Assembly (NCBI GenBank): GCA_030018315.1
Contig: JASEGA010000003.1
Span: 7,246-71,245, forward strand
DNA: 64,000 nt
From: a bacterium
GTDB taxonomy: Bacteria > Hydrothermota > UBA3073 > JACQXS01 > JAGMCI01
Direction: 5' to 3'
Numbering within the stretch: position 1 is the stretch's first letter; each line of letters opens with the position of its first letter. Positions 4,546 to 36,994 of the stretch are shown in pieces. The notes beneath the pieces were generated by a model that was not told the origin of the DNA, made no database searches, and saw only the letters and a list, made by a program, of their open reading frames with translations. Position numbers and translations under genes: made by a program.

Positions 4546-5847
4546 TTAATCTGTGGCTCCACTCTTTTTTATTCTTTTCTTAATTTCCTGTTCAAAGCCT
4601 AAATCCCCAGGAGTGTAATATTTACTACCCTTAAGTTTTTCTGGTAAATAGCTTTCCTTAACCCAGTGATTTTTGTAACTATGTGGATACTTGTACCCTT
4701 TACCATAACCTATGTTACGCATAAGTTTGGTTACAGGATTCCTTAAATGTAAAGGAACTGGGAGTGAGCCGTATTTTTTCACATCCTCTAATGCATGTCT
4801 GTAGGCAATGAGTGCAGTATTGCTTTTTGGTGCAGTTGCAAGATAGATTGTTGACTGTGCCAAAGGTAAAAAGCCTTCTGGCATACCTACAAGTTCAATT
4901 GCTGACTTACATGAAGTAGCAACCACAAGTGCTTGCGGGTCTGCATTTCCTATGTCCTCAGATGCAAAAATTACTAACCTACGTACAATAAATATAGGGT
5001 CTTCACCGGACTCTATCATCCTTGCTAACCAGTAAAGGGCAGCGTCGGGATCACTACCACGTAAGCTTTTTATGAATGCAGATATTAAATTATAATGCTC
5101 TTCACCCTTTTTGTCATAAAGTAAAGGACATTCTTGGATAGCTCTCTTAATTGCAGATAAGGTTACATTCTTTTTTCCATTCTTTGGGGCAGTTGTGAGT
5201 GCGACAAATTCAAGAATGTTTAATGCAACACGTGTATCACCATCGGCTACACGAGATAAGTATTCTTTTGTTGATTCTTTAATTTCTAAGTTATGTTCTT
5301 TTAGCCCCTCATCAAGTTTAATAGCTCTATTAATAATTTTGATTATCTCATGCTCACTTAGCTTTTTAAATATGTATACAGTGGTACGGGATAGAAGTGG
5401 TGGTATTAGTTCAAATGATGGGTTCTCTGTAGTTGCCCCTATTAAAATGATTGTCCCATCCTCAACATATGGCAGGAAAGCATCTTGTTGCGCTTTATTG
5501 AAGCGATGTATCTCGTCAATAAATAATATTGTCCGCTTCCCCTGACCTCTATAAAGTTTTGCCTCACGTGATACTCTTCGCACATCGTCTATACCAGAGA
5601 GAACAGCGCTGAAGCTTACAAATCTGTAATCTCTCAATTTTGCAATAATTCGTGCAAGAGTAGTCTTGCCACTTCCGGGTGGACCCCAGAAAACCATACT
5701 CGGTATCTCACCTCTCTCAATTGCTTTTCTTATAGGACCATTTGGGCCTACAAGATGGGATTGACCAACAAATTCAGTTAGAGTCTGTGGTCTTACGCGG
5801 TCAGCTAATGGGGAGCCAACAGATTGGAATTTTTCAAAAAGGTTCAT
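4546..5847 (-). CDS. rarA: Replication-associated recombination protein A (AAA+ ATPase)
   Basis: Walker A GPPGSGKTT and the conserved RarA/MgsA C-terminal domain. Confidence 0.9.
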   Translation of the reverse strand: MNLFEKFQSVGSPLADRVRPQTLTEFVGQSHLVGPNGPIRKAIERGEIPSMVFWGPPGSGKTTLARIIAKLRDYRFVSFSAVLSGIDDVRRVSREAKLYRGQGKRTILFIDEIHRFNKAQQDAFLPYVEDGTIILIGATTENPSFELIPPLLSRTTVYIFKKLSEHEIIKIINRAIKLDEGLKEHNLEIKESTKEYLSRVADGDTRVALNILEFVALTTAPKNGKKNVTLSAIKRAIQECPLLYDKKGEEHYNLISAFIKSLRGSDPDAALYWLARMIESGEDPIFIVRRLVIFASEDIGNADPQALVVATSCKSAIELVGMPEGFLPLAQSTIYLATAPKSNTALIAYRHALEDVKKYGSLPVPLHLRNPVTKLMRNIGYGKGYKYPHSYKNHWVKESYLPEKLKGSKYYTPGDLGFEQEIKKRIKKSGATD

Positions 5848-5886
5848 TAGATTATTCGCTTAGCTCAGAATGACAGTGTATGTATT

Positions 5887-6705
5887 TTATACGAATGGCT
5901 CTCTTACATGCTTTATTTGGGACCAGGTCAAGACTGGCCCATCTTTACACACATATAGCTCACCTACACGACAGTGGTTACATTGACCTAATCCACATGA
6001 CATATTTCTTTCCATTGATAAATATAAATCAGCACCTGAAAAGCCAGCCTCAAGTAATCTTTTAGTTACAAATTTCATCATTATTGGTGGCCCGCATACT
6101 ATAGCAACTGAGTTATTAAAATCAACTGGTATCTCATCAAGAATTACGGTTACAACACCAACCCTACCATTCCAAGTTTCATCCCCTACATCCACTGTGA
6201 GTAAGATGTCAACATTTTCAAGTTTATCCCATTTGGGTAAAAATTGTTTATATACAATATCTTTAGGACTCCTCGCCCCATATCTTATATATATTTTTTT
6301 GTAGTCATTAATATTATGTACAAGTGCTAAAAATAGCGACCTTAGTGGCGCAAATCCTACACCACCACCTACAATAAATACTTCTTTTCCTCTAAACTTT
6401 TCAAGTGGATACCTTTTTCCATAAGGACCACGAATGCCAACTAAATCACCTGGTTTCAAGTTAAAAAGTGCAGTAGTTACCCTACCAACTTTCATAATAG
6501 TGAATTCCAATTTATCGTTATCAAATGGTGATGATGAAGGTGTAAACGGAGCCTCACCAACTCCAGGGACAGTGAGTTCAGCAAATTGACCTGCCTCAAA
6601 ATTTATCGGCTTCGGAGATATAGTAAAAGTTTTTATCCCCGGACTCTCTTCTACAATCTCAGTTAATCTACAGGGCAGTGATTCGTAAGGATTTATAATA
6701 GTCAT
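5887..6705 (-). CDS. FAD/NAD(P)-binding oxidoreductase with C-terminal [2Fe-2S] cluster (AsrB / sulfhydrogenase gamma / PyrK family)
   Basis: 272 aa. GGGVGFAPL nucleotide-binding motif and C-terminal CGLGQCNHC...C cluster. Confidence 0.8.
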   Translation of the reverse strand: MTIINPYESLPCRLTEIVEESPGIKTFTISPKPINFEAGQFAELTVPGVGEAPFTPSSSPFDNDKLEFTIMKVGRVTTALFNLKPGDLVGIRGPYGKRYPLEKFRGKEVFIVGGGVGFAPLRSLFLALVHNINDYKKIYIRYGARSPKDIVYKQFLPKWDKLENVDILLTVDVGDETWNGRVGVVTVILDEIPVDFNNSVAIVCGPPIMMKFVTKRLLEAGFSGADLYLSMERNMSCGLGQCNHCRVGELYVCKDGPVLTWSQIKHVREPFV

Positions 6706-6709
6706 AATT

Positions 6710-7705
6710 TTACAACTTTAATAGTATTTTCCTTATATCTATTTTCCCCATACAGCCTGAGATACATCTACCACACCCTGTGCAAGCAAAGAAGCCGTGA
6801 TACTTATAAAAATAATTAAATTTGCACTCAAATCTGTTCTTAAACCTTGAAGTAAAGTCTGGCATCGGATTAGCTCCACCTCCAACTCTTGCATAAGCAG
6901 CATAGTAGCAAGCATCCCAGATTCGGACACGCTCATTCGACGGTTCATCGTAAAGTAGGAAGCAGTAACAGGTAGGACAACACATTAAACAGCCACAACA
7001 TTCAACACAACCAGAAGCCTCAGATAGGCAGAATTTTTGCTCATTGACATTGACTCTTTCATATAAGTCTTCTTTAAACCTATCTGGATTAATTTCTTTC
7101 AACTTATCAAGTGCTTTTTTTCGAGAAGCTTCCCTTTGTTCCAAATCTTCAGGAGATGTGTTTTCAAACCATATTTTGTTTTCCTCTATAATGGCTTCAC
7201 CTTTTGGTGAAAGTGGTTCAATCACATATCCACTTCTAACAGGAGTTACGTTTAAATCAGCACCTTCATCAACCCATGGATTAAGTCCTAACAAGTTACA
7301 AAAACAAGTAGGCTCTGGTTGTGGGCAATCTGCTGAAATTAGGATTGTAGTTTCCCTCCTTTTCTTATAGAATGGGTCAACAAATTCAGAATCAAGGAAG
7401 ACTTTATCGTATACCTCAATAGCTTTCAAGTCGCAACGCTTAATTCCTACAATTGCCTGTGGCTTTATTCCCTTTTCCAATGGCTTATCAAATGAGGCTA
7501 CAGACTCTATTGGTTTAAATAGAAAGTGCTTCACTGGCTCTACTGTCCGAATATGCTCGAAGCTAATTGTAGAAGTATCCTCTGAACTAAACCTGTGAAA
7601 GTGTGGTCTTTCCTGTTCAATAGTAGGGATAAAGACTTCATACTTTTCTATAAGCCGCAAGAGGAGGGGTACAAATTTATCCAGAGGCAAGAAATACGTC
7701 TCCAT
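6710..7705 (-). CDS. Fe-S protein, AsrA / sulfhydrogenase beta-like
   Basis: Multiple Cys clusters (CVECCGCLMCCPTCYC, CTGCGRCISGC). Separated by 4 nt from the gamma-like gene. Confidence 0.65.
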   Translation of the reverse strand: METYFLPLDKFVPLLLRLIEKYEVFIPTIEQERPHFHRFSSEDTSTISFEHIRTVEPVKHFLFKPIESVASFDKPLEKGIKPQAIVGIKRCDLKAIEVYDKVFLDSEFVDPFYKKRRETTILISADCPQPEPTCFCNLLGLNPWVDEGADLNVTPVRSGYVIEPLSPKGEAIIEENKIWFENTSPEDLEQREASRKKALDKLKEINPDRFKEDLYERVNVNEQKFCLSEASGCVECCGCLMCCPTCYCFLLYDEPSNERVRIWDACYYAAYARVGGGANPMPDFTSRFKNRFECKFNYFYKYHGFFACTGCGRCISGCMGKIDIRKILLKL

Positions 7706-7720
7706 ATTATTTTAAATGCC

Positions 7721-8521
7721 TCATTTTAATTTGAGTGCAGGTGTGTTTAAAACAATTTCTTTTAGATTTTGTGCAAAGTTAGTCTTTGAAAGTTTACCTA
7801 CATTTCCTATTGAGGCTTCAAGTCCTTCATCAAAATCTATCTCACCAAGTAGAGGGATATTGAATTTTTTTATTTGTAGGGATAATTCATGAATTGTCCT
7901 TACAGGCTTCATGTTCTCAATAACCCCAATAATCTCGACCTGTCTTGCCTCTTTAAGCATTTTTATCACCTTTTTGACAGTCTCCATCGTCACTTTAGAC
8001 GGTGTAGCTATTATAATGAATTCAGCTCTTTTTATCAACCGAATTACATCTAATGTTGCATCCCCAATACCCGGTGGCATATCAATAATTAGAAAATCTA
8101 ATAAACCCCACCGTGTGATACTTAGCAATTCTATCATTGCATTTGAAATATCAATGCCTCTCAGTGGCGAAGGCTTATCAGCAGCATAATAAATGATAGA
8201 TATAAACTTAATGCCATAAATTTCAGGTGGTATAACTCCTTTATCTTCTTTTGGATAAATTCCTCTTATTCCTAATATTATATCAATAGATGGACTACAA
8301 AAATCCAAATCCAGTAGCCCAACTTTGTATCCTAATTCTGTCAAAGTCAATGCTAAAGTAGATGCAATTAAACTCTTACCAATACCACCTTTACCACCTG
8401 AGACAGCAATTAACCTCTTTATATTTCGTAATCTTTCATCAATTATATTTAAGCGCGGATCCATAATCATTATTGTATGGACACGGCACGCCGTGTCCAT
8501 ACAACTATTTTGTTCCTTCAA
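7721..8521 (-). CDS. Mrp/NBP35 (ApbC) family P-loop ATPase
   Basis: GKGGIGKS deviant Walker A. MinD/ParA-like fold. Confidence 0.8.
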   Translation of the reverse strand: MKEQNSCMDTACRVHTIMIMDPRLNIIDERLRNIKRLIAVSGGKGGIGKSLIASTLALTLTELGYKVGLLDLDFCSPSIDIILGIRGIYPKEDKGVIPPEIYGIKFISIIYYAADKPSPLRGIDISNAMIELLSITRWGLLDFLIIDMPPGIGDATLDVIRLIKRAEFIIIATPSKVTMETVKKVIKMLKEARQVEIIGVIENMKPVRTIHELSLQIKKFNIPLLGEIDFDEGLEASIGNVGKLSKTNFAQNLKEIVLNTPALKLK

Positions 8522-8930
8522 TAGACTCTATAAAGATACCTCGTCCTTTTATAAATTCAAAGTCAGGACTACCACATTTAGGGCACTTAATATAGGCATG
8601 TGCGACTTCGGGGACAAAATGTATTGATTCGGATTCTTCATCATTTAATTCCATATCACCAAAAGCCCAATTATGTTCACAGACTCTACATTTTAAAATA
8701 GCTTTTTCTGTTCCGATCTCTATTTTTGCTTTTCTAAGTGGAGTAGGAGTTTGATTAATCAAACCTCTACATTGGACAATTTCCTTTAGAGCAAATCTAA
8801 ATATCTCCGTATCTATTTGCTGTAATTCGCCCATCTTAATTTTAATCTTATCAATCCTTTTAAGTTTTTCTTTTTCTGCTACCCCAAGTGCAGTAGAAAC
8901 AACTGCCTCTGCTAATGCCCATTCATGCAT
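8505..8930 (-). CDS. hypA: Hydrogenase nickel-incorporation protein HypA carrying an in-frame palindromic-element insertion
   Basis: MHEWALAEAV... start and the CPKCGS zinc motif. Element A variant at 8743-8770 encodes CRGLINQTPTPL in a loop. Confidence 0.8.
   Translation of the reverse strand: MHEWALAEAVVSTALGVAEKEKLKRIDKIKIKMGELQQIDTEIFRFALKEIVQCRGLINQTPTPLRKAKIEIGTEKAILKCRVCEHNWAFGDMELNDEESESIHFVPEVAHAYIKCPKCGSPDFEFIKGRGIFIESIEGTK
8743..8770. repeat. Palindromic element A variant (GTAGGAGTTTGATTAATCAAACCTCTAC) inside hypA
   Basis: In-frame and encodes RGLINQTPT. Confidence 0.8.
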
Positions 8931-13928: not shown

Positions 13929-14669
13929 CTAATGTCTCATTGCGAGGATGAGTGCGATCGCCACTATCGCTGCTGTCTCTGTACGTAGCCTCCTTTTACC
14001 AAGTGATACTGGAATTACATTGTCCATTTTAGCAAGTCCTATCTCTTCTTCTGTAAACCCGCCTTCAGGTCCAATAAAGATTGCAATGCTATTTTCTTCT
14101 TTGCCGCTCCGGATGCGGCGCTTAATTACATCCTTTATATGAGTTATATTTTCCTTCTCATGTGCGATAAGTGATAAATCAAATTGGGTTAAGTTCTTTA
14201 CGGCTTCATCAAAGCTTATTATTCTATCTATTACTGGCAAAATTGTCCCCTTGGATTGCTTCATTGCACTTATTGCAATTTTATTCCAGCGACTTAGCTT
14301 TAATTTTTCACTCTTTGGTATAGATACGGAGTGTATTGTAGTTATAGGCACTATTCTGTAGATTCCTAATTCAGTTGTCTTTTCTACAATTATATCCATT
14401 CTTCTACCTTTTGGGATTGCTTGAAATAAAGTTACCTTGCATCGCGGGTCACAGCAGCCTTCTTTTTTATCTAATATAGAACAAATTATATCATTCTCCT
14501 TATAATCTTTTATAGCCACGATATACTCAAAGCCTACACCATCTACTACTTTTATCTTATCCCCTATCCTATAGCGTAACACATTTTTTATATGATGCGA
14601 TTCCTCATCAGATATTATCAAATGGGCGGCAAAAATATTTTGAGGCGGTGTATAAAAGTAATAATCCAT
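13929..14669 (-). CDS. rsmE: 16S rRNA (uracil1498-N3)-methyltransferase RsmE
   Basis: 246 aa with the PUA-like N-domain and C-terminal SPOUT motif (FIGPEGGFTEEE). Confidence 0.8.
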   Translation of the reverse strand: MDYYFYTPPQNIFAAHLIISDEESHHIKNVLRYRIGDKIKVVDGVGFEYIVAIKDYKENDIICSILDKKEGCCDPRCKVTLFQAIPKGRRMDIIVEKTTELGIYRIVPITTIHSVSIPKSEKLKLSRWNKIAISAMKQSKGTILPVIDRIISFDEAVKNLTQFDLSLIAHEKENITHIKDVIKRRIRSGKEENSIAIFIGPEGGFTEEEIGLAKMDNVIPVSLGKRRLRTETAAIVAIALILAMRH

Positions 14670-14699: not shown

Positions 14700-15323
14700 T
14701 TAGTAGCCCCATATTTCATGCAGGTAAGTTGACCTCCTGCATCTCGGGCATAGTAATCTAAGATGACCTGACCTGTAAGGGGACACTTTCAGGTGAGATG
14801 GAGGAGCTTCCCCGATAAATCGGGGTTCAATTGTACCTAATTCTTTGCTTAGTATAAGCCATAGAGTTGGGTTATCATATGCCAACTCCCCTAACTTTTT
14901 AGCAATCCATTTGAGCTGTGTTTTTGGAGCTATGACCTCACCACACTCATCGCATAAAATAAGCTCAAACTCAGTTTTAGTTTCATACCCATCTTTTGTA
15001 AGCTGTGCAATGTCATATTCCTGAGTATGCTTAAGTGCATCAGTCGGACAGTAGTCAACACATTGACCACAATAAATGCAACGTTCCTGATGGTAGATTA
15101 GCGTACGTATTCTTTTATCTTTATCATCCTGTACTTCTCTTGCCTTTGATGGACAAACTTCAACACAGGCACTACAACCAATACACTTTACCTCATCAAT
15201 TGCCATTATGCCCCTAAACTTAGCGGCTGCCGGTGAAGGTGCATATGGAAATTTAACAGTATAGGGTCCTTTGACAAGCGCCCTTATCGCCTCACCTAAT
15301 TCCCTAATTTTAGGTCTTTTCAT
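14700..15323 (-). CDS. 2x[4Fe-4S] ferredoxin subunit (NuoI/EchF/HycF-like) with Cys-rich C-terminal extension
   Basis: CIGCSACVEVCP and CIYCGQCVDYCP motifs plus extra CDECGE...CPRCRR. Confidence 0.75.
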   Translation of the reverse strand: MKRPKIRELGEAIRALVKGPYTVKFPYAPSPAAAKFRGIMAIDEVKCIGCSACVEVCPSKAREVQDDKDKRIRTLIYHQERCIYCGQCVDYCPTDALKHTQEYDIAQLTKDGYETKTEFELILCDECGEVIAPKTQLKWIAKKLGELAYDNPTLWLILSKELGTIEPRFIGEAPPSHLKVSPYRSGHLRLLCPRCRRSTYLHEIWGY

Positions 15324-15339
15324 ATCACTCTTTACACAC

Positions 15340-16521
15340 TCAGACTTTTAGACTGTTTTTCCTCTTTAATTCTTCTGTTTTTTCCCATGATAGCTTTAAT
15401 AGCTCCTTGCCTGATAATTTTTTCCCTTTATAATAAGCAGTAGCCATCCGTTCTGTACAACAATAACATGGGTCAACTGATGCAAGCACCAATACAGCGT
15501 CTGAAATAGTATAGCCTTTGACAGCTACCTCATTAGATGGCACATTCATATAACTTGGGGCACGTACCTTATATCTAACTGGTATATTTGAACCATCTGA
15601 ACGTACATAATGAAATACCTCCCCTCTCGGCGCCTCTGCCCTGCCAATCCCTTCACCAGGAGGTATGTCTTCAACTCTTGTTTGTATCTCACCATGGGGC
15701 ATCCTTTTCAAGCATTCTCTTATTATCTTTATGGATTCAATGCATTCCAAAAGTCTGACCTTTGCCTTAGCAAGTAAATCGCCTTCTTCAAACACTATAA
15801 TATTCCATGGAATAAGGTCATAAGCTGCATATGGGTCATCTTTACGTACATCAATGGCAAGCCCAGAACCACGCGCTGTAGGACCTACAGCTCCGTATCT
15901 GATAGCCTCCTCTTTGGTTAGGACTCCTACTCCTTCAAGCCTACCTGCTATTACAGGGTCATCCAGAATAGCCTTTATAAACATATCAGTCTTAGATTCA
16001 AGCAGGTTCATAACCTTATCAATCTCCTGCATATCTTTATCCTCAATATCACGCCTTACCCCTCCTACTTTCATCATCGCATAATGGTTACGGTTACCTG
16101 TAATTAATTCAAACAGCTGTAGAATAGGCTCACGATAGCGCCAAAACCACATCCATACAGTATTGTAGCCCATAAAGTGGCCAGCCAAACCTACCCATAA
16201 GAAATGTGAATGAATACGCTCAAGTTCAGCAATTATTGTGCGTATATATTTAGCACGCTCAGGTATCTCAATATGGGCTAGGTCTTCTACTGCCTGAACA
16301 CATGCAATAGGATGAGAATTTGAACATATACCACATATCCTTTCTACAAGGAATGGGATTTGTTCATATGTCATCTTCTGTGCTAGGTATTCATGACCAC
16401 GATGATTGTATCCTATGTTTATCTCCAGTCCAGTTACTTTTTCACCTTCAACCTCAAGTTTGAAGAATTCAGGCTCATCTTGGAGTGGGTGATACGGACC
16501 TACAGGTATAATAGTCTTCAT
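15340..16521 (-). CDS. [NiFe] hydrogenase large subunit, group 4 (energy-converting type, NuoD-like)
   Basis: N-terminal RICGICSNSH (RxCGxCxxxH) and C-terminal DPCYCCTER (DPCxxCxxR) Ni-binding motifs. Confidence 0.85.
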   Translation of the reverse strand: MKTIIPVGPYHPLQDEPEFFKLEVEGEKVTGLEINIGYNHRGHEYLAQKMTYEQIPFLVERICGICSNSHPIACVQAVEDLAHIEIPERAKYIRTIIAELERIHSHFLWVGLAGHFMGYNTVWMWFWRYREPILQLFELITGNRNHYAMMKVGGVRRDIEDKDMQEIDKVMNLLESKTDMFIKAILDDPVIAGRLEGVGVLTKEEAIRYGAVGPTARGSGLAIDVRKDDPYAAYDLIPWNIIVFEEGDLLAKAKVRLLECIESIKIIRECLKRMPHGEIQTRVEDIPPGEGIGRAEAPRGEVFHYVRSDGSNIPVRYKVRAPSYMNVPSNEVAVKGYTISDAVLVLASVDPCYCCTERMATAYYKGKKLSGKELLKLSWEKTEELKRKNSLKV

Positions 16522-16946
16522 TCTCCTCTCCTCAACGGATATCTGCTACTTTGCCACTCTTCTGCAGTCAGTAACGGTTTCAAATTAGGATGACCTTCAA
16601 AATTGACCCCCAATAGCTCATGTATTTCACGCTCAATCCAATTAGCAGCCGGTAAGAATGTAGCAAGTGAGTCTATTTTTAACTCATCCTTTGGAACAAT
16701 TACACGTATCGAATAAATAACTCCAAAGGAATCAAGTGAAAAGTGGTACAAAAGCTCAACCCCCCTCCTTGTATCAGTTCCAGTTACTGTAGATAGGCGC
16801 ATCCCCTTTTCTTCATACAAAAAATGAGCCATATCAGTAATTTTCTTCCTATCAATCTCAATATAAACACGCCTGGGAGAATGGGGAAGCCAACTCAAGA
16901 CTTCAAATTTTCCTCTAATTTCCTTTTCTAACTCATCCATTATCAT
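16518..16946 (-). CDS. NuoC/EchD-like 30-kDa-type subunit
   Basis: Conserved NuoC fold motifs. 4-bp overlap with the large subunit gene. Confidence 0.7.
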   Translation of the reverse strand: MIMDELEKEIRGKFEVLSWLPHSPRRVYIEIDRKKITDMAHFLYEEKGMRLSTVTGTDTRRGVELLYHFSLDSFGVIYSIRVIVPKDELKIDSLATFLPAANWIEREIHELLGVNFEGHPNLKPLLTAEEWQSSRYPLRRGE

Positions 16947-16988
16947 TTAGACTTTTAGACTCTTAGACTTTTAGACTGTTTTTCCACT

Positions 16989-17393
16989 TCATAACTTACT
17001 CAACACTTTGACAATACCCATGATTATAGCCTCAGGTTTAGGTGGACATCCCGGAATATATGCGGCTACTGGCAAGTATTTGTCATATGGACCTACTATA
17101 TTATACGAACCACAAAATATACCACCAGAACAGGCGCAACTGCCAACTGCAATCACTAAACAAGGTTTAGGTGTTTGTTCGTAAATCCTTAAAACTCTCT
17201 CTTTTGCCTTTAGGTTAAGTGCCCCTACTACAAGCAACACATCTGCATGACGAGCTGAGCCAACAAGTCTTATCCCAAAACGCTCAAGGTCATATCTTGG
17301 AGTCAGTGCATCAAGTATCTCAATATCACAATTGTTGCATGAACCACTTGATACATGGAATACCCATATCGACTTCTTTAAAGCCCAGCTCAT
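16989..17393 (-). CDS. Hydrogenase small subunit, NuoB-like
   Basis: CNNCDIE, GSCACSGG and PGCPP cluster-binding motifs. Confidence 0.8.
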   Translation of the reverse strand: MSWALKKSIWVFHVSSGSCNNCDIEILDALTPRYDLERFGIRLVGSARHADVLLVVGALNLKAKERVLRIYEQTPKPCLVIAVGSCACSGGIFCGSYNIVGPYDKYLPVAAYIPGCPPKPEAIIMGIVKVLSKL

Positions 17394-17857
17394 CTTCTCC
17401 TCAAGAACGGGAGACGAGACACAAATTTTCTCCCAACCTCAATTTTTTCAATCTCCTCATCAGTCAAAAATTTCAATGCACCAGAGACACAGGTTGCAAC
17501 ACACCTAGGCCCATCTTCTCTATCTTTACATAGGTCGCACTTTTGTGCCAAGTGTCGTATAAGTGGTGAATCTAATACTCCGAACGGGCATGCATATATA
17601 CAAGAACCGCATCCTATACAAAGGAAGCTGGCACGCCTCACAATACCAGTTTTATCATCTTTTGTAATTGCTTCTTGAGGACAAGCTTTTGCACACAATG
17701 GGTCTTCACAGTGACGACAAGCTAAAGGGAGATAAGCCATAGTCTCTATCTCACTTATCCCAATACGACCTTCGCCTTTAAATGCTGACTGGCATGCTGC
17801 TACACAACTACGGCACCCAACACAATAGTCTAAATCAAGTACTATCCTTTTTTGCAT
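17390..17857 (-). CDS. Polyferredoxin, four [4Fe-4S] motifs (HycB-like electron transfer subunit)
   Basis: CVGCRSC..., CRHCEDPLC, CIGCGSCIYACP and CDLCKDRE. Confidence 0.75.
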   Translation of the reverse strand: MQKRIVLDLDYCVGCRSCVAACQSAFKGEGRIGISEIETMAYLPLACRHCEDPLCAKACPQEAITKDDKTGIVRRASFLCIGCGSCIYACPFGVLDSPLIRHLAQKCDLCKDREDGPRCVATCVSGALKFLTDEEIEKIEVGRKFVSRLPFLRRR

Positions 17858-17891
17858 AACTCAACCGCAAATGCACGCAGATAGACGCAAA

Positions 17892-17925
17892 TTTGTAATC
17901 TGTAATTTGTAATCTGTAATCTATG
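17892..17925. repeat. Tandem heptamer microsatellite (TGTAATC)n, intergenic
   Basis: TTTGTAATCTGTAATTTGTAATCTGTAATC. The same heptamer array appears inside the hdrA-like CDS at 62294-62326. Confidence 0.7.
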
Positions 17926-17926
17926 T

Positions 17927-19618
17927 TTATCTGTGTTCATCAGCGTTTATCTGTGGTTTCAACCTATCAAGAGTAACCTCAACTGGTGGGAAGCTACAAA
18001 TACCATCATCAACAATCAACTCAAAAATAGACCTCGTCTCAGGTAATTCTGTAGGAATAACGGAAACGCCGGTAGGCACTCTATTGCTTATATTTACTTT
18101 AAGAGGACCCATTTTTTTTGTATTAGATTTCAAAATTATTGTGTCTTTTTCCTTAACTCTTAACTTCTCCGCATTAACTGGGTTAACCTTAACTTGAGGT
18201 ATAACCTCTTGCGGTTCTTTCCAGTTGGATTCAAATAAACCTCTAAACCCATAAGCAGGCTTCTCACCAATAAGATATAATTTATCAGGTTTTTTGCGCT
18301 CTGAAAAAGGAGGTATCCTATTTAAACTATTTAAAATTTTGGAAACTTCAATCTCCTTTTTATATGGGTTTTGAGGCTCTCCGGTGAGCTTAATAGACAA
18401 TTCTGTAGCCAAGCTGTTAACAATGGATTCAACAGTTTTTGTCCCACTCATTGGCTCAATAACTGGGCATATTTTCCTATTACCCAATACAGTTGAGATT
18501 GTGCCGAATTTCTCAAGATTTAAAGCAGCTGGCAAGAATAAGCCGGGCAAGTCTTTAATATTTTTATCATCTGGGTAAAAAGTTGCTGTTGAGACAAGTA
18601 AGTTAAGTTTCTTTAAAGCAGGATAAACTTGAGGATAATAAAATGGGAATAGCTCACCAAAATTTAAAAGCACTTTAACTTCGTGGCCCTGAATTTTTTC
18701 CAAAATTTCACCAAATTCAAGTTTCCCACATCCGACTACTGATTCGCTAAGAGGTAAGAATCTCTTGTCATTTGAAAGTAGTGATATAAAGTATTGTAAC
18801 GCACCTGAAAACAGGAGTGGGTCAATAACTCTACCAAATGCTGTACCCGCAATGACTACACCCTTTTGTGCTTCATTCAACGATTTAGCTACAGATTCTA
18901 ATACTGAGTGAGAAACTCCAATCTTATCAAAAAGAGAAAGCTGATGAGAGAAGACTTCAACCTGCTTACCAGAAACAATATTTGACATCTCAAGTACAGC
19001 AATAGGCTCATCACCAGGTGCTACCTGTATAAATGTATCAGCAAAGCCAGCAGTATAAGTGCATACGGAATCAATTACAAAAATACGATTATTGCGGTCT
19101 TTATATCTTGCATCAAGAATAGGTTTAGAGATGATTGGAAACTGGCTGAATATATCGCCTACAATCAAAAATACCTGTGATTCACTCACATCATCAAGAG
19201 TTGCTGTTTTTACTCTATGTAGCAAATAATTAAAATAAAATTCAGGTTCAATGTAGCTTGATGCAAGATTTTCAATTCCTAACGCTTTGCCAAATTCAAA
19301 AACAAGTGAGTATTCTTCAAGTGTAAGATTTGTATCAAATGTAATCGCAATCGGAGGTACGTTTTTCCTTTTTAATACTTTAGCAATTTTCTTAAATGCT
19401 TCAGTCCACGAGATTTTTTTACCATCCTCTATTGGTGATGTAATCCGGTTTGGGTGGTCAAGATATAGGGCTGCCCCATTGCCACGAGGACATAATCTGC
19501 CATCATTAGGCTTACTCCCCTTAATATATTCAACTTTTATCCTTGTAGCATCAGCTACAATTCCAAGTTCACACCCAAGTACACAAAATGGGCAAATAGT
19601 CTTATTAACCACCATCAT
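17927..19618 (-). CDS. Molybdopterin oxidoreductase family protein, formate dehydrogenase alpha-like (563 aa)
   Basis: N-terminal CPFCVLGC...C [4Fe-4S] motif. The MGD-binding-like VIDSVCTYTAGFAD segment. Shorter than FdhH, and the catalytic Cys/Sec is not identified. Confidence 0.65.
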   Translation of the reverse strand: MMVVNKTICPFCVLGCELGIVADATRIKVEYIKGSKPNDGRLCPRGNGAALYLDHPNRITSPIEDGKKISWTEAFKKIAKVLKRKNVPPIAITFDTNLTLEEYSLVFEFGKALGIENLASSYIEPEFYFNYLLHRVKTATLDDVSESQVFLIVGDIFSQFPIISKPILDARYKDRNNRIFVIDSVCTYTAGFADTFIQVAPGDEPIAVLEMSNIVSGKQVEVFSHQLSLFDKIGVSHSVLESVAKSLNEAQKGVVIAGTAFGRVIDPLLFSGALQYFISLLSNDKRFLPLSESVVGCGKLEFGEILEKIQGHEVKVLLNFGELFPFYYPQVYPALKKLNLLVSTATFYPDDKNIKDLPGLFLPAALNLEKFGTISTVLGNRKICPVIEPMSGTKTVESIVNSLATELSIKLTGEPQNPYKKEIEVSKILNSLNRIPPFSERKKPDKLYLIGEKPAYGFRGLFESNWKEPQEVIPQVKVNPVNAEKLRVKEKDTIILKSNTKKMGPLKVNISNRVPTGVSVIPTELPETRSIFELIVDDGICSFPPVEVTLDRLKPQINADEHR

Positions 19619-19621
19619 TAG

Positions 19622-20520
19622 ATTTTATTGTGAATAGTTGTTTTTGTCAAATAAAAATGGTGGCAATAAATTGGGAAGCGATAGATCAAATGACTTTAGC
19701 CAGAACCTCTGATAAAATACCTGCCTGCCGTCGGGCATGGTTGGTAAAATGAGGGACTGGCGATGAACGAGAGCGATTTTATTTACCATATGAGAGTGAA
19801 AATATTTGAAGAAGCTGATAAACAGGAGACTTCTATAGTTTCTCTTTGTAGGAGGTATCATGTGAGTAGGAAATGGTTTTATCTGCAGAACTCGTGAGAA
19901 GAAATATCATTGTTGGGCATACTGGGATTTACAATGTTTTGCGAAGGAGGGGACTAAATACAGCAAAAAAGCGGTTGGAATGGGTAAGAAAATTAAATGG
20001 AGAAATTGTGACTCTTGATGAACTTGCCAGAGATAAAGAGAAATCTAAAACGAACCATATAGAAGCAACTTATCCGGGGCAGTTAGTGAGTGAGAATACT
20101 TTCTATATTGGTTGCTTGTGATTGTTTTTCTTCTTTTGGTGCTGCGAAGATTTATGCTAACAAGACCGCGGATACTTCCTGTGATTTTGTGGGAAACCAT
20201 CTTATCAAAAAATTCACAGGAGTGAGAATAGAAAGACTTCTTACAGACTGTGGGACAGAATATACAACTTGGCATGAGTCTGCAAAGCCAAACCATAAGT
20301 TTGAGAAAATGTGTCATAGGCTTGGGGTTCGGCATACTACTACCAAAGTGAGGCATCCATGGACCAACGGTTATGTTGAGAGGTTAAACAAAACTCTCTT
20401 AGATGAATTTATGGACGATTATAACTATAGAAGGACCCATCAGGGGTATAAGTTAAAGGAAAATGGCTACAATATACCAGCTGAGGCACATTTATCAAAA
20501 AACCTAAAAAAGACTTGACA
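19622..20520 (+). mobile_element. Decayed IS481-family insertion sequence (transposase split by frameshifts and stops)
   Basis: HTH fragment MNESDFIYHMRV..., then the rve integrase core LTDCGTEYTT...HPWTNGYVERLNKTL...YNYRRTHQG, spread across at least 3 frames. Confidence 0.55.
20090..20518 (+). pseudogene. IS481-like transposase, integrase-core fragment
   Basis: rve-domain DDE region without a cognate N-terminus in the same frame. Confidence 0.55.
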
Positions 20521-20715: not shown

Positions 20716-23700
20716 ATGGAACGAAGGTTTTGGTTCATTTTAGCAGTATCAACAGTTATTGGGTCTAGTGTATACGGTCAGTTTGTATCGATTGATGGAT
20801 TTGATGACCCACCCGGTAATGGCTATTTTGTGAAGGATTCTGTATGGGTAACAGGGATTGCTGATTTCTCAGCTGTAGATAAAAATGTGCAATGGGTGAT
20901 GGTAAGATTCAGGAGGGTAGATAATTCCTGGCTTGGTGCATGGCGGCCTGCCTCTCCAACTGATGGTCATTTCGATGAAGAAGTTGAGAGCTGGTATATA
21001 AATCTACCTATGGATGATACACCATTTCCAAGTGATGGCACCGAATATGTGATAGATGCATGGGCATGGGCTGGAGGCTGGCCTGGTAGCTCTGCCTCAA
21101 CCACCTATCAGCCGAGTGGTAATCTCAAGTTAGACCGAACAGAGCCCTCTACAACTATCACTATACCACAAGATACGAGTTGGGTCAATCAAGCATTTAC
21201 TATACAGGGGACAGCCACCGATAATCTTTCAGGAATCTATTATATTGAAATAACTATTGTAAGAGTATCAGATGCTACAATCTTAGTAAATCACCAACTT
21301 GTCTCCTATAGTGGTACCCCCACGGCTCGTACCTGGAAGTATACCTGGATAGTCCCTACCGATGACCCAGACAGGACAAGATACAGGATTACCATTGAGG
21401 TATGGGATGATGCCCGCTTTGACCCTTATGGTAATACCTCATCTGAATACAGGTCTGCCAATTACGCAACCCATACCATAGTAGTAAATAAAGATGATAC
21501 GGCCCCGACTTCAACTATTCTAACCCCACCCAACGGAGATACAATTACAGGCACTATTCGGCTAACTGGAATATCCGATGACAATGATATGGCAGGTGTA
21601 GCCTTAGTTGAGATAAACACGAGCGATGGCACTGGTTGGAAAGTAGTTCACCCATTATCAACCCCTGGTCAATACACAAACTGGTATTATGACTGGAATG
21701 CTGGCTTTTTGACTGATGGCAATTATACAATTCAAACACGTGCCTACGATAATTCACTCCCGCCTAATATAGAATCTTTGGGGCCAGGTATGACTCTGCA
21801 TGTCGACAATACTGCACCCACCTGGGTAGCTTTAAAGGGTCAAGATGGGGATGTAGTCTATCACAATGGGGAAACTGTGACCCTCCTTGCAACATTAGAT
21901 GCACCCGGCTACTTGTTGACTTGTGACTTTAGCAAATTAGATAACCAATGGATAGAAGGCAGTGAACAATTTACTGATAATGGTGATAACACTTATACAA
22001 TTGTGTATAGGATTAGTGAATCTAACACCCAATTGAATGGAACTTATACAATAACTGCAACTGCAAAAGACTTTGCCGGTCGTGTAACTTCAAAAACAGT
22101 TAATCTTGAACTTAGCAACAGTGGCCCTAATATTCAAAATTGCTTAGTTGAGTATCCATTTGGTCAGACAGCCGTCCGTTTATCTCAAAATATAAAAATA
22201 ACTTCTTTAGTCACCGCTACCGATGCTCCTCTAAATCCTGACTCCATCTGGGTAGATGGCACAAGTCTTAATGATATGGCTTTCATAAGAATGTGGGATG
22301 ATGGCACCCATGGTGACGCTGTAGCTGGTGATAATGTATATACGAGTGACATAACAATCTTATCCGATTCCACTGGCGTTGTGGAGTTCACTCTTCATGC
22401 AGCTGATGTGATACCTAATTTTTCATCTAGGACTGGCAAAGTAGTTCTTGACAATACCTCTCCAAAGCATAGATTGACCTGGTGTGGAGATGCTGATAAG
22501 ATATACAAAAATACTGATAGAGTTACAATTGGCACAAAATGGGATGGAATAGATTATCTGGTAACCGCTAACTTCAGTAATCTTGATTCTAATTATGAGC
22601 CTGGAATGGAGCAGGTCACAAATAATGGTGATAGCACTTATACCATTGTGTATATCATAAGCTATTGGAATACAACAGCTGATGCCTCTTCCATTCTAAT
22701 ACCTGTAACTGCTTGGGATGCGGTTGGTAATGGACCTGTGATAGACTCTTCTTATACTGTAGCACTTTATAATTCATCTAAGCCTGTTACAGTTACTAAT
22801 CCTGAAGCTGGTGCCTATGTAAAGGAAGATGCTATGGTTGAGTGTACGTGTCCTGATGTAACCTGTGCTGTCCATTTTCAGGTATCTCCTGATTCAATCC
22901 ACTGGTATAACCTAAGTGGGACACCTGATACTTCTACAATAGATTCAGATGGTGGTAATGGGTGGAATGCAATCTGGCATACTCAATTATTTGAGGACGG
23001 TCCATATTATATTTTTGCTAAAGCATATGATGAAAATGGTTATCTAATTGCAACTGGTTCATTGTATGAGACCGTCATAGTGGACAACACTCCACCAACT
23101 CTAAAAATTAGTATATCACCATTACCTCAAAATGGTGACTCTACCAATGGCGAGGTATATGTAGACGAAATTCTACTTAAAGGAGTTCATTCAGACTTAA
23201 CAAGTGGTGTAGAGAAGCTAATAATCGAGGTTAAGAATGATAGTGGTGACAATATAAATAACAGTCCAATTTTAATTCCAGCCAGTGACAGTACATTCTC
23301 GAGGTGCATCAATCTAATTGAAGGCAACAATTATATAACAGTGACTGCTTTTGATAAGATTGAGAATACCTATACTGACTCATCCTTTCTCACTTACATC
23401 TCGCCCGCCGTATCAAAAGAGATTGGCCCCGAAGGTGGTACAATTGAAGCCCCTGATGGCGCAATGCTCATAATACCCCCAAATGCGCTCCTAAGGGATA
23501 CAAAAATATCTATAAAACCTGTTCCAGCCAATGAACTTACCCCATGTTCTGATCCTGCGGTTACATTACTCAGGGTAGCGCATAATTTTACCCCTGATGG
23601 TCTTATCTTTCATAAACCAGTAACAATGATTCTTCCTTATACTGAGGCTAACTTAGATTTAGATCAAGATGGTAAGCCCAACTATCCTGAAGACTCTTTA

Positions 23701-24138
23701 TCTGTCTTCTTCTTTGATGGTATAGAGTGGCTTAAGGTGGGCGAGCCTGATAGAGATCCAGTAAATAATACTCTTACTATAGATGTAAATCACTTTACTG
23801 TGTTTGATTTGGGGGTAGATAGGAAAATTTTACCTACAAGTCTTAAAGTAGGCTTGACCAAGAATCCATTTATTCCAAAAGAAGGTACCACCATCTGGTT
23901 TTCGCTCCCAGAGCCTGGCATTGTCACTTTGGAGATATACGATTTGGCAGGTGATATTGTGGCAACAATTGTAAGAGAAAAAGAGTTTAGGGCAGGTGAA
24001 AATTCTCTCAGGTGGGATGGGTTATCCGATTTTGGTAGATGGGTAGGGAGTGGAATTTATGTCTATGTGTTGGAATACAAGAGTATTAGTAGGAAGAATG
24101 ACGCTATCATAAAGAAACCAATTGGGGTGATGAAATAG
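20716..24138 (+). CDS. Large secreted Ig-like/beta-rich surface protein with T9SS C-terminal sorting domain
   Basis: Signal peptide. Repeated domains. C-terminal LEIYDLAGDIV...WDG...GIYVYVL resembles the Por secretion CTD. Confidence 0.75.
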   Translation: MERRFWFILAVSTVIGSSVYGQFVSIDGFDDPPGNGYFVKDSVWVTGIADFSAVDKNVQWVMVRFRRVDNSWLGAWRPASPTDGHFDEEVESWYINLPMDDTPFPSDGTEYVIDAWAWAGGWPGSSASTTYQPSGNLKLDRTEPSTTITIPQDTSWVNQAFTIQGTATDNLSGIYYIEITIVRVSDATILVNHQLVSYSGTPTARTWKYTWIVPTDDPDRTRYRITIEVWDDARFDPYGNTSSEYRSANYATHTIVVNKDDTAPTSTILTPPNGDTITGTIRLTGISDDNDMAGVALVEINTSDGTGWKVVHPLSTPGQYTNWYYDWNAGFLTDGNYTIQTRAYDNSLPPNIESLGPGMTLHVDNTAPTWVALKGQDGDVVYHNGETVTLLATLDAPGYLLTCDFSKLDNQWIEGSEQFTDNGDNTYTIVYRISESNTQLNGTYTITATAKDFAGRVTSKTVNLELSNSGPNIQNCLVEYPFGQTAVRLSQNIKITSLVTATDAPLNPDSIWVDGTSLNDMAFIRMWDDGTHGDAVAGDNVYTSDITILSDSTGVVEFTLHAADVIPNFSSRTGKVVLDNTSPKHRLTWCGDADKIYKNTDRVTIGTKWDGIDYLVTANFSNLDSNYEPGMEQVTNNGDSTYTIVYIISYWNTTADASSILIPVTAWDAVGNGPVIDSSYTVALYNSSKPVTVTNPEAGAYVKEDAMVECTCPDVTCAVHFQVSPDSIHWYNLSGTPDTSTIDSDGGNGWNAIWHTQLFEDGPYYIFAKAYDENGYLIATGSLYETVIVDNTPPTLKISISPLPQNGDSTNGEVYVDEILLKGVHSDLTSGVEKLIIEVKNDSGDNINNSPILIPASDSTFSRCINLIEGNNYITVTAFDKIENTYTDSSFLTYISPAVSKEIGPEGGTIEAPDGAMLIIPPNALLRDTKISIKPVPANELTPCSDPAVTLLRVAHNFTPDGLIFHKPVTMILPYTEANLDLDQDGKPNYPEDSLSVFFFDGIEWLKVGEPDRDPVNNTLTIDVNHFTVFDLGVDRKILPTSLKVGLTKNPFIPKEGTTIWFSLPEPGIVTLEIYDLAGDIVATIVREKEFRAGENSLRWDGLSDFGRWVGSGIYVYVLEYKSISRKNDAIIKKPIGVMK

Positions 24139-25306: not shown

Positions 25307-25738
25307 TTGAATCCTCTACCTGTCAAGAAAAAAATTGGGCTCTGTCCCATTGTCGTGTCCACAAATTTAAGGTGTGGAAATAAGAAAGTAGTAAAGTTTT
25401 ATAATAAATGGGGCACCTGTGAACAATGGATAAAAGAAGGCAAGTATGCGTTAAACTGGACGCAGTTATCATGCCAGAAGTTTGTGGAGAACGAGGGTAG
25501 GCTGAAGTTATTTATCCTGGCATATAATCTGGGTAATTTCTTAAGGACACTCGTGTTACCTGATGGGATAAAACATTGGTCGTTAAGAACAATTCAGTTA
25601 AAGCTGATAAAGCTCGGTGCGAGATTAATAAGGCATGCCCGATATTACTGTCTATTATTAGCTGAGTCTTGTATCAGTGAGAGGCTATTTTCTTGCTTGA
25701 TGCGTAATATCAAGCGACTTTGTCCTGCGACCGGGTGA
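25307..25738 (+). pseudogene. IS4/IS5-type DDE transposase C-terminal fragment
   Basis: ...WTQLSCQKFVENEGRLKLFILAYNLGNFLR... matches the conserved C-terminal region of DDE_Tnp_1 transposases. The N-terminus is missing. Confidence 0.5.
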
Positions 25739-31382: not shown

Positions 31383-32366
31383 CTACATAAATCCTTGTGC
31401 TTTCATCCAATCATCGTTAAAGATTTTACTCAAATACTTATGCCCGCTATCCGGTAAAATAGCAACTACAATTTGAGGTGATACCTCTTTTTCTTTTTCC
31501 AATTTTTTCGCCACTTCAATAGCTGCCCACACTGCTGCACCACTGGAGCCACCTGCAAAAATACCTTCCTCTTTTAAAAGTCGTCTTGTCATAATAAAAG
31601 AATCCTTATCCGATACCTGAATCATATCATCAATATACTCAAACTTCATAGTCTCACACAACATCTCCATACCTATGCCTTCAACAAGGTAAACTTTTGG
31701 CTCAATAAGTCTTTTATACTTAAAATAGTCACAATATACTGACCCGATAGGGTCTACACCAATTACTTTAATTTCCGGATTTTTCTCCTTTAGAAATTTG
31801 CCAACCCCTGAAATTGTACCACCTGTCCCAGCTCCTATAACTACATAATTAACTTTGCCATCAGTCTGTTCCCAAATTTCTGGTCCCGTAGTTTTATAGT
31901 GTGCTTCAACATTCTTCTCGTTGTGATATTGATTTATCAAGTAAGAATTGGGTGTTTTCTCAGCAATACGTTTAGCTACCTCATGATAAGACTCAGGTGA
32001 GTCAGGTGCAACATCAGTAGGGCAGACTATTACCTCTGCCCCAAATACTTTAAGTAAATCAATTTTCTCTTTACTCATCTTATCCGGGATAGTAAAAACT
32101 GCCTTGTACCCCTTAACAGCTGCATACATAGCTAAGCCAACACCTGTGTTGCCACTTGTATTCTCAACAATTGTGCCACCAGGCTTCAATAGGCCACACT
32201 TTTCAGCCTCCTCTACCATATAAATTGCCATCCTATCTTTCAGTGAACCACCGGGATTAAAGAACTCAAGTTTTGCTAAAACAGTCGCTTTTATACCACG
32301 AGTTACTCTATTCAATTTTATAAGCGGAGTATTACCTACAGTTTCTAAAATATTATTATACCACAT
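31383..32366 (-). CDS. Cysteine synthase / cystathionine beta-synthase-like PLP enzyme (paralog 1)
   Basis: Fold-type II PLP motifs (SVKDR, GNTG, GTGGT). Start taken at MWYNNILE, matching its paralog. Confidence 0.85.
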   Translation of the reverse strand: MWYNNILETVGNTPLIKLNRVTRGIKATVLAKLEFFNPGGSLKDRMAIYMVEEAEKCGLLKPGGTIVENTSGNTGVGLAMYAAVKGYKAVFTIPDKMSKEKIDLLKVFGAEVIVCPTDVAPDSPESYHEVAKRIAEKTPNSYLINQYHNEKNVEAHYKTTGPEIWEQTDGKVNYVVIGAGTGGTISGVGKFLKEKNPEIKVIGVDPIGSVYCDYFKYKRLIEPKVYLVEGIGMEMLCETMKFEYIDDMIQVSDKDSFIMTRRLLKEEGIFAGGSSGAAVWAAIEVAKKLEKEKEVSPQIVVAILPDSGHKYLSKIFNDDWMKAQGFM

Positions 32367-33331
32367 TAAATGAATCCTTTCTCTCTCATCCACTCATCAT
32401 TGAAAATCTTACTGAGATATCTGCTTCCACTATCCGTAAAAATAGTGATAACGACCTTATCACGAGGCAACCCCTTCGCTACTTTAAGTGTAGCACATGC
32501 CGCTGCTCCTGAAGCGCCTCCGACAAAGATTCCTTCCTCTCGTAATAACCTTCTTGCCATAAGAAATGCATCCTTATCAGAAACTTGAATTACATCGTCA
32601 ATTAGCTCAAATTTTAAAGTCCCAGGTAGTAGATGTTCACCAATCCCTTCCATCAGATAAACTTTAGGTTCTATAAATTTTCTATGCTTAGCCCAGTCAT
32701 AATATATTGAGCCTACCGGGTCTACACCTATCACTTTAATCTTTGGGTTCTTCTCTTTTAAAAATTTACTTACTCCCGAAATTGTGCCACCAGAGCCCAT
32801 ACCAATAACTACATAGTCGACTTTCCCTTCAGTCTGTTCCCAAATCTCTGGCCCTGTGGTTCTGTAGTGGGATTCAATATTTTTCTGGTTGTAGAACTCA
32901 TCTACTAAAAAAGCATTCCTCTCCTTAGCAATCCGCTTAGCAACTTCAAAATATGAATTAGGTGAATCCGGAGGAGTATCGAGTGGGCAAGCTATTACCT
33001 CTGCTCCAAGTGCTTTAAGTAAACCAATTTTTTCCTTACGTGTTTCATCAGGTATTGTAAAGATTGTCTTGTATCCTTTAACAGCTGCATATATGCCTAT
33101 ACTAATTCCTGCATTACCTGATGTGCTCTCAACAATAGTATCCCCTTGCTTCAAAAAAACCAACTTCTCAGCATCTTTAAGTATATAAAATGCCATCCTA
33201 TCTTTTACTGAGCCACCAGGGTTGAAGAATTCAAGCTTCGCTAAGATAGTAGCTTCTATACCACGAGTCACTCGATTCAATTTTACAAGTGGAGTATTAC
33301 CTACAGTCTCTAAAATATTATCATACCACAT
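32367..33331 (-). CDS. Cysteine synthase / CBS-like PLP enzyme (paralog 2, tandem duplicate)
   Basis: Roughly 60% identical to the downstream paralog by eye. Same motif set. Confidence 0.85.
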
Positions 33332-34776: not shown

Positions 34777-34780
34777 TGAT

Positions 34781-36977: not shown

Positions 36978-36994
36978 TCGGCATTTGGATTTCG

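Follow-up and report, generated by a model that had tools for sequence, protein, structure and literature searches.

A group-4-type [NiFe] hydrogenase locus that keeps eight soluble subunits and lacks the membrane arm of its relatives

The stretch of DNA analysed here (the window) comprises 64,000 nucleotides of contig JASEGA010000003.1 from the bacterial assembly GCA_030018315.1, and its subject is a [NiFe] hydrogenase operon at positions 14700-19618, considered together with a smaller gene cluster at 5887-8930. Coordinates of open reading frames (ORFs) and their Pfam and NCBIfam assignments were obtained for the window. Six ORFs, all in the same direction on the minus strand, are confirmed at 14700-19618; their identities, as well as the flanking rsmE gene and insertion-sequence (IS) remnant, agree with an earlier reading of the bare sequence (hereafter the original prediction). 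The cluster at 5887-8930 shares its strand with the operon and is tightly packed, with hypA first, followed by an mrp-like ATPase gene, an asrA-like and an asrB-like gene. All eight ORFs for soluble subunits, six in the operon and the asrA-like and asrB-like pair, are intact. The genes and their boundaries are as follows.

17927-19618, minus strand: FdhF-like protein of the molybdenum-bis(pyranopterin guanine dinucleotide) (Mo-bisPGD) fold, 563 aa; Pfam Molybdop_Fe4S4 significant, NCBIfam
17390-17857, minus strand: HycB-like ferredoxin, 155 aa, 16 Cys; Pfam Fer4_11
16989-17393, minus strand: NuoB/HycG-like small subunit, 134 aa; Oxidored_q6, E=4e-31
16518-16946, minus strand: NuoC-like subunit, 142 aa, unfused to the large subunit; Complex1_30kDa
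15340-16521, minus strand: [NiFe] large subunit, 393 aa; Complex1_49kDa and NiFeSe_Hases
14700-15323, minus strand: HycF/NuoI-like 2x[4Fe-4S] subunit, 207 aa; top NCBIfam match is formate hydrogenlyase iron-sulfur subunit
13929-14669, minus strand: rsmE, 16S rRNA methyltransferase, the downstream boundary, outside the hydrogenase system; Pfam, NCBIfam
19873-20518, plus strand: degenerate rve-type IS remnant, two ORFs; Pfam rve and rve_3
8505-8930, minus strand: HypA nickel-insertion chaperone; Pfam HypA
7721-8521, minus strand: Mrp/NBP35 (MrpORP/ApbC-like) P-loop Fe-S carrier ATPase, flanked by hypA on one side and the asrA-like gene on the other
6710-7705, minus strand: AsrA-like protein (sulfhydrogenase beta Fe-S subunit), 331 aa, 19 Cys; Fer4_22, NCBIfam ShyB/HydB, PDB 9nez_B and synteny
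5887-6705, minus strand: AsrB-like protein (sulfhydrogenase gamma), 272 aa, with flavin adenine dinucleotide (FAD) and NAD(P) binding and a [2Fe-2S] site; NCBIfam HydG/AsrB, PDB 9nez_C

The large subunit retains both Ni-site motifs, R61-I-C63-G-I-C66-S-N-S-H70 and D350-P-C352-Y-C-C355-T-E-R358, with all four Ni/Fe cysteines present, and both RICGICSNSH (61-70) and DPCYCCTER (350-358) are invariant among the large subunits of its relatives. When searched against PDB with phmmer, it scored 288 bits with Pyrococcus furiosus MbhL and 270 with Escherichia coli HycE, compared with approximately 200 for NuoD/Nqo4 and approximately 60 for FrhA/MvhA, and it carries a 35-aa C-terminal extension beyond DPCYCCTER, as HycE does. 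Since the MbhL and HycE scores lie well above those of NuoD and the four cysteines are present, the protein is assigned, by its motifs and PDB scores, as a cysteine-complete group-4-type catalytic subunit and neither a NuoD nor an Ehr protein. The group-4 catalytic module of the original prediction is thereby upheld, and the grouping with NuoD or non-catalytic Ehr proteins that it had named as the way to be wrong is disfavoured by the same evidence. Conserved cysteines of the NuoB-like subunit (C19, C22, C86/C88 and C116) fit a single proximal [4Fe-4S] cluster.

Among all ORFs of the window, hydropathy scanning revealed no NuoH- or NuoL-like one with multiple transmembrane segments, and tblastn of all ten membrane subunits of a relative against the full 64 kb gave no match at E<0.1, with no equivalents of HycC or HycD. 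The operon is thus without membrane subunits, as the original prediction had it. Homologues of the large subunit with 64-87% identity are abundant in metagenome-assembled genomes (MAGs) of candidate division WOR-3, Stahlbacteria, TA06 and Latescibacterota, and a synteny map was made by tblastn over the best 80 species-representative GTDB loci, a set to which the genome of the window does not belong (best identity 75%). The complete WOR-3 chromosome CP070686.1 carries an 18-gene operon in the order AsrA-like, AsrB-like, FdhF-like, HycB-like, NuoH, NuoB, NuoC, large subunit, two antiporter-like proteins, MbhD/E, MnhB, NuoK, a third antiporter-like protein, MnhE, MrpF, MnhG and NuoI-like; nuoH thus separates the HycB-like gene from NuoB, and nine Mrp-type genes separate the large subunit from NuoI. 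This order was found in about 70 of the best 80 loci (WOR-3/TA06/Latescibacterota), and outgroup loci from Omnitrophota, Clostridia and Planctomycetales keep it minus the FdhF-like gene. At the outgroup loci L073, L076, L077, L078, L084 and L085 (approximately 5600-8300) the HycB-like gene follows directly after asrB.

In the window, the HycB-like and NuoB genes overlap by their stop and start codons (ATGA) in the position taken by nuoH in relatives, and the NuoI-like gene begins 16 nt past the large subunit, where relatives have the nine Mrp-type genes. The operon is therefore the 18-gene operon minus nuoH and the Mrp block, closed at tight junctions and with the eight soluble subunits kept, and we conclude that one or a few losses from a membrane-bound ancestor have occurred. 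Neither this derivation from an 18-gene ancestor that lost nuoH and mrp nor the sulfhydrogenase beta/gamma partners had been noticed in the original prediction. The IS remnant occupies the exact place where asrA-asrB adjoin the FdhF-like gene in relatives, and an IS-mediated rearrangement probably separated asrAB from the operon. Membrane genes immediately beyond a misassembled IS junction had been named as a finding that would refute the original prediction. Misassembly as the cause of their absence was rejected: in relatives the membrane genes sit inside the operon and not beyond its ends, and the internal junctions are tight. Nothing is concealed at the IS junction. Another remnant of a mobile element close to the operon, at 25307-25738 on the plus strand, is a C-terminal piece (143 aa) of a DDE_Tnp_1_4 transposase, covering profile positions 303-433 of 435.

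The membrane-less form is shared by at least nine independent assemblies (NCBI, ENA, JGI and Logan), with both junctions closed in every case. At locus L004 it consists of eight contiguous genes; it is found also at L087/L088, L089, L092 and on one JGI contig, while L005 and L006 carry NuoC, large subunit and NuoI without Mrp genes between them. In assembly GCA_028716385.1 the cluster is split, with the FdhF-like, HycB-like and NuoB genes on one contig (L090) and NuoC, large subunit and NuoI on another (L008). No membrane subunit was found within 10 kb of any membrane-less locus. After the membrane-less operon of L087, at 14849-17702, lies an oxidative-stress cluster of Fur, flavin reductase, rubredoxin, hybrid-cluster protein and desulfoferrodoxin. 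Membrane-arm size is very plastic across the hydrogenase family. Reduced arms of eight genes occur in relatives, some without two of the three antiporter-like genes, and in the WOR-3 relative L010 (8130-13352) the large subunit and NuoI are separated by just NuoH and one antiporter-like gene, a minimal arm of the Ech/FHL type (FHL, formate hydrogenlyase).

Compared with each other, the membrane-less operons are saturated at synonymous sites and show amino-acid identities of 51-87%, and dN/dS is 0.03-0.19 in the few pairs for which it is computable, dS being saturated for most. Low dN/dS, intact ORFs and recurrence together show that the genes of the membrane-less operon are maintained by purifying selection and are therefore neither relics nor assembly artefacts. 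In the tree, the membrane-less sequences fall between the outgroup and the main membrane-bound WOR-3 radiation, and in a relative-rate comparison these lineages are no more diverged from the outgroup than membrane-bound ones.

The AsrA-like and AsrB-like proteins find their best matches in the beta and gamma subunits of P. furiosus sulfhydrogenase I (PDB 9nez_B, E=6e-40, and 9nez_C, E=1e-51, respectively), and the latter retains its C-terminal [2Fe-2S] cysteines as well as GGGVGFAP, a motif for dinucleotide binding. In relatives the asrA-like gene is the first gene of the operon and asrA-asrB are contiguous with the FdhF-like gene; in the window hypA is linked to the asrAB-like genes. Judged from these matches, the pair is suggested to be the true electron-input partners, and the likeness to sulfhydrogenase beta/gamma points to NAD(P)H. 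Synteny in relatives likewise suggests that the beta/gamma module would associate with the hydrogenase core. At L004 (2832-5263) and L089 (4731-7162) a group-3 [NiFe] pair, with a small subunit of 324 aa and a HoxH-type large subunit of 486 aa, was observed directly upstream of asrA-asrB, and in this context the beta/gamma-like module might be shared between group-3 and group-4 catalytic cores.

For the HycB-like ferredoxin, the best solved matches are HycB3 of the hydrogen-dependent CO2 reductase (7qv7_A) and HycB of FHL (7z0s_B), and its 16 cysteines are enough for four [4Fe-4S] clusters. The NuoI-like subunit has an N-terminal amphipathic helix, conserved as in membrane-bound relatives, and a C-terminal cysteine quartet (C124, C127, C192 and C195). 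In the HycF alignment, where polyferredoxins ranked higher and residue-level correspondence rests on offset and pattern, C124/C127 are aligned offset-consistently with HycF, and C192/C195 would be equivalent to HycF C155/C158 from the pattern. In the solved FHL complex (PMC9474812), the HycF quartet has a metal ion bound where FdhF and HycB meet. The original prediction had regarded the Cys-rich tail as an oddity of this locus; however, the quartet is present in all relatives and is therefore a family trait.

The FdhF-like protein deserves closer attention, as formate coupling had been proposed on its account. Its N-terminal [4Fe-4S] motif is present (C9, C12, C16 and C43), however, in single-sequence as well as profile alignments Tyr122-Ile123 take the place of Sec/Cys140-His141 of FdhF and three other formate dehydrogenases. 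The segment ASSY[LI]EPE is nearly invariant among 30 FdhF-like homologues, with Tyr-Ile/Leu at the Sec/Cys-His site in 30 out of 30, and formate coupling is therefore not borne out, family-wide. Of the features for which the protein had been singled out, the length of 563 aa is confirmed and the catalytic Sec/Cys is absent (Tyr122); the ORF has no in-frame stop and no selenocysteine codon, and therefore no selenocysteine insertion sequence is expected. The Pfam families Molybdopterin and Molydop_binding match weakly, below cut-offs, and cofactor-contact motifs of the DPR and N-x-x-x-HP types look degenerate, on our reading of the profile alignment. An AlphaFold2 model nevertheless shows the full four-domain fold at a pLDDT of 90.5, and Foldseek places formate dehydrogenases at the top of its matches at 15-16% identity (FdhF, query-normalised TM-score 0.79). 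The protein evolves far faster than the core (30-53% vs 72-87% identity), and its gene is dispensable in the outgroup operons, where it is absent. Taken together, we read it as a [4Fe-4S] subunit derived from FdhF that probably lacks the cofactor, an analogue of the C-terminal NuoG domain. A Saganbacteria homologue could not be classified as a formate dehydrogenase in an earlier study (PMC6349859), and a Lost City study mentions an unplaceable formate dehydrogenase-like sequence in a WOR-3 MAG. Upstream of the gene, a sigma-70-like site (TTGACA-17-TAAAAT, 11 of 12 positions, a consensus match only) lies at 19622-19650 on the minus strand and ends 4 nt before the ATG; if it is used, either the transcript is leaderless or the second Met is the true start.

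We consider the best explanation to be that the locus encodes a group-4 hydrogenase which is functional without an anchor and linked to NAD(P)H, derived by loss of the membrane arm within a family widespread in WOR-3 and related candidate phyla, and assign to it a probability of roughly 0.55. The parent enzyme would combine a group-4 core (NuoB, NuoC, large subunit and the HycF-like subunit), an FHL-type wire (HycB-like and catalytically degenerate FdhF-like proteins) with a FAD/NAD(P)H module of the sulfhydrogenase beta/gamma type, and a NuoH anchor with an Mrp-type ion-translocating arm. NAD(P)H would be oxidised at the flavin of the gamma subunit, from which electrons would pass through the clusters of the beta subunit, then the [4Fe-4S] cluster of the FdhF-like protein and/or the four clusters of the HycB-like protein. 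The two HycF-like clusters and then the proximal cluster of the NuoB-like subunit would carry the electrons on to the Ni-Fe site for the reduction of protons to H2; the reverse direction, with H2 reducing NAD(P)+, is also possible. In membrane-bound relatives the same electron path would be coupled to ion translocation by NuoH and Mrp. In the lineage of the window, without the membrane arm, the reaction would be uncoupled from the ion gradient, and the enzyme would be cytoplasmic or peripherally membrane-associated, bidirectional and built on a group-4 core. The wider claim, that a group-4 [NiFe] lineage may have given up both its NuoH-type anchor and its antiporter arm while remaining active as an NAD(P)H:H+ oxidoreductase, either free or peripheral, is held more tentatively, at slightly under an even chance.

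Several observations weigh against an anchor-less functional enzyme. The absence of nuoH and mrp is established for the 64-kb window, and a cluster may lie elsewhere in the genome. Among 184 sites that are at least 95% conserved in membrane-bound large subunits, 163 are unchanged in all seven membrane-less sequences, and two differences are fixed. The only local cluster of changes in the membrane-less proteins falls at NuoB residues 47-65, including L64K and P65D/E, unlike both membrane-bound and outgroup sequences; no relaxed membrane interface is seen in the large subunit, and the comparison of residue conservation is compatible with docking as well as with its absence. NuoI's N-terminal amphipathic helix, located on the surface of the membrane in all solved structures of the complex-I type, is equally conserved here, and the membrane-less lineages show no acceleration of rate. 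The flow of electrons from NAD(P)H to H2, if uncoupled, is endergonic at standard conditions. Further, the soluble domain of E. coli FHL assembles without HycC and HycD, however, its hydrogenase is then largely inactive (PMC5061711). The phylogeny is also less clear than it appeared: a monophyletic membrane-less clade was suggested by a first neighbour-joining tree, but in bootstrapped neighbour-joining with corrected distances its monophyly receives support of 11-23% and L092 takes a basal position in the membrane-bound clade, and it is for this reason that no more than one or a few losses are claimed. The retained residues may fit an anchor supplied in trans, peripheral association or strong intrinsic constraint.

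The first of these options forms the strongest alternative, although we regard it as unlikely: the soluble module would dock to a NuoH-type anchor and antiporter-like subunits encoded elsewhere, either relocated or shared with another complex-I-like enzyme, and would stay ion-coupled. The unrelaxed residues at the candidate interface and the conserved membrane-surface helix of NuoI speak for such docking, as does the proneness of the operon to fragmentation, seen in the displaced asrAB of the window and in the split between NuoB and NuoC in GCA_028716385.1. However, two separate blocks would have had to leave while eight soluble genes stayed tightly coupled in at least four genomes, and no membrane subunit occurs within the 64 kb of the window or within 10 kb of any membrane-less locus. 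Two membrane-less GTDB genomes also contribute no second, membrane-bound-type paralogue to the best 80 loci, and the graded series of arm reductions in relatives is another point against an anchor in trans.

A soluble hydrogen-lyase, in which the FdhF-like protein is a real Mo/W enzyme oxidising formate or some other substrate, appears considerably less probable still. All four domains of the Mo-bisPGD fold are present in a high-confidence model, and formate dehydrogenases are the structures nearest to it; the subunits mirror the soluble arm of FHL, including the HycF quartet that faces FdhF in E. coli, and Y-[LI]-E-P-E is nearly invariant at the active-site position. That invariant segment, however, is the one which places Tyr-Ile/Leu at Sec/Cys140-His141 in all 30 aligned members, and the Pfam scores below cut-offs, degenerate cofactor motifs, fast evolution, absence from outgroup operons and the earlier failure to classify a homologue as a formate dehydrogenase (PMC6349859) all argue in the same direction. 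Finally, the IS remnant beside the operon and the transposase fragment at 25307-25738 might suggest a membrane-bound operon in decay, or an error of assembly or binning, but this reading is effectively refuted by recurrence and selection, given eight intact genes, dN/dS far below 1 at saturated dS, and identical junctions in the independent NCBI, ENA, JGI and Logan assemblies.

Comparison with known systems places the preferred reading, an anchor-less NAD(P)H-linked enzyme, in context. The resemblance to FHL noted in the original prediction holds, as the subunit set equals the soluble arm of FHL. With E. coli FHL (Hyc, group 4a; PDB 7Z0S) the correspondence of FdhF, HycB, HycG, HycE (NuoC plus large subunit) and HycF is one-to-one, and the HycF C-terminal Cys quartet and the large-subunit extension after DPCxxCxxR are shared; however, the locus has no HycC or HycD, no Sec-His in its FdhF-like protein, a NuoC separate from the large subunit and an extra beta/gamma module. 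For the P. furiosus membrane-bound hydrogenase (MBH) and the Mrp-linked hydrogenases of Thermococcus (4d/4b; PDB 6CFW), MbhL is the best match at 288 bits and relatives of the window locus share the Mrp-type arm. MBH takes its electrons from ferredoxin, without an FdhF-like/HycB-like wire or beta/gamma subunits, whereas the window locus is without the MbhM anchor and the Mrp genes. P. furiosus sulfhydrogenase I (group 3b; PDB 9NEZ) has the beta/gamma subunits and the cytoplasmic NAD(P)-linked role predicted here, but its catalytic alpha/delta pair belongs to group 3, in contrast to the group-4 NuoD/NuoB-type pair of the window.

NuoG/NDUFS1 resembles the FdhF-like protein in being derived from formate dehydrogenase, in keeping a [4Fe-4S] cluster and the fold, and in having lost the catalytic residues, and each would have an NAD(P)H module on one side and a NuoI-NuoB-NuoD core on the other. 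Unlike complex I, the window locus has an NAD(P)H module of the PyrK/AsrB type and not NuoEF, and a terminal Ni-Fe site in place of a quinone pocket. Ehr complexes share the NuoBCD-like core, however, they lose the Ni/Fe cysteines and keep the membrane subunits, the opposite of the window locus on both counts.

The membrane-bound architecture itself is known: Matheus Carnevali et al. (2019, PMC6349859) called it an "enigmatic" group-4 hydrogenase in Saganbacteria RX5A, and related enzymes occur in Zixibacteria and Omnitrophica. The RX5A enzyme was described with Mrp subunits, an unclassifiable molybdopterin oxidoreductase, cooF, asrA and asrB, a parts list equal to that of the membrane-bound relatives of the window locus. 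Literature searches for a soluble or anchor-less group-4 enzyme found none describing a conserved clade, and only a remark on Saganbacteria RX6A, a case left unresolved with a truncated large subunit (PMC6349859); the window form, by comparison, is complete, lacks NuoH and Mrp, recurs in at least nine assemblies and is under selection. According to reviews (PMC8165549), conservation of the membrane-anchored peripheral module is universal. The membrane-bound parent is thus known, and the recurring, complete anchor-less form, now described in the lineage of the window, is new.

Some other contents of the window may be recorded. At 61479-63719 (minus strand) lies a 746-aa protein with 22 cysteines, Pyr_redox_2 and 2x[4Fe-4S], a candidate HdrA-like protein and another cytoplasmic redox enzyme. 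Overlapping adjacent ORFs at 31383-32393 and 32366-33331 (minus strand), of 336 and 321 aa, have near-identical N-termini (MWYNNILETVGNTPLIKLNRVTRGI vs MWYDNILETVGNTPLVKLNRVTRGI) and are apparently tandem paralogues. Four genes at 33742-38605 (minus strand) encode two radical-SAM (S-adenosylmethionine) proteins, a geranylgeranyl-reductase-like flavoprotein and a protein in which DUF116 is fused to a lipoate-protein-ligase catalytic domain. A large Ig-domain protein with an FlgD_ig C-terminus (20716-24138, plus strand) and an Omp28 protein with Por_Secre_tail (41714-42757, minus strand) each carry a C-terminal domain of the type IX secretion system type, which is consistent with a host of the Fibrobacteres-Chlorobi-Bacteroidetes group (WOR-3-like).

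If the hydrogenase of the window lineage is indeed uncoupled, it would be functionally comparable to cytoplasmic NAD(P)-linked hydrogenases, on a group-4 core. A "group 4 / Mbh" call for a large subunit does not alone imply ion-pumping energy conservation, a warning for metagenome annotation. A conserved clade in which every soluble subunit is selected and no anchor genes are present in cis constitutes a natural test of anchor dependence, and could serve as a model of the hydrogenase/Q-module that is both soluble and tractable. The wider family joins a degenerate FdhF-like protein and an NAD(P)H module to an Mrp-type hydrogenase; its membrane-bound members parallel the FdhF-to-NuoG step of complex I evolution and make the proposed transition from FHL to complex I experimentally approachable. 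Should the anchor-less reading be true, these membrane-bound sisters would form with it a natural gradation from 10 through 8 and 2 to 0 membrane genes, and the membrane anchor would not be intrinsically required for catalysis in the complex-I-like superfamily.

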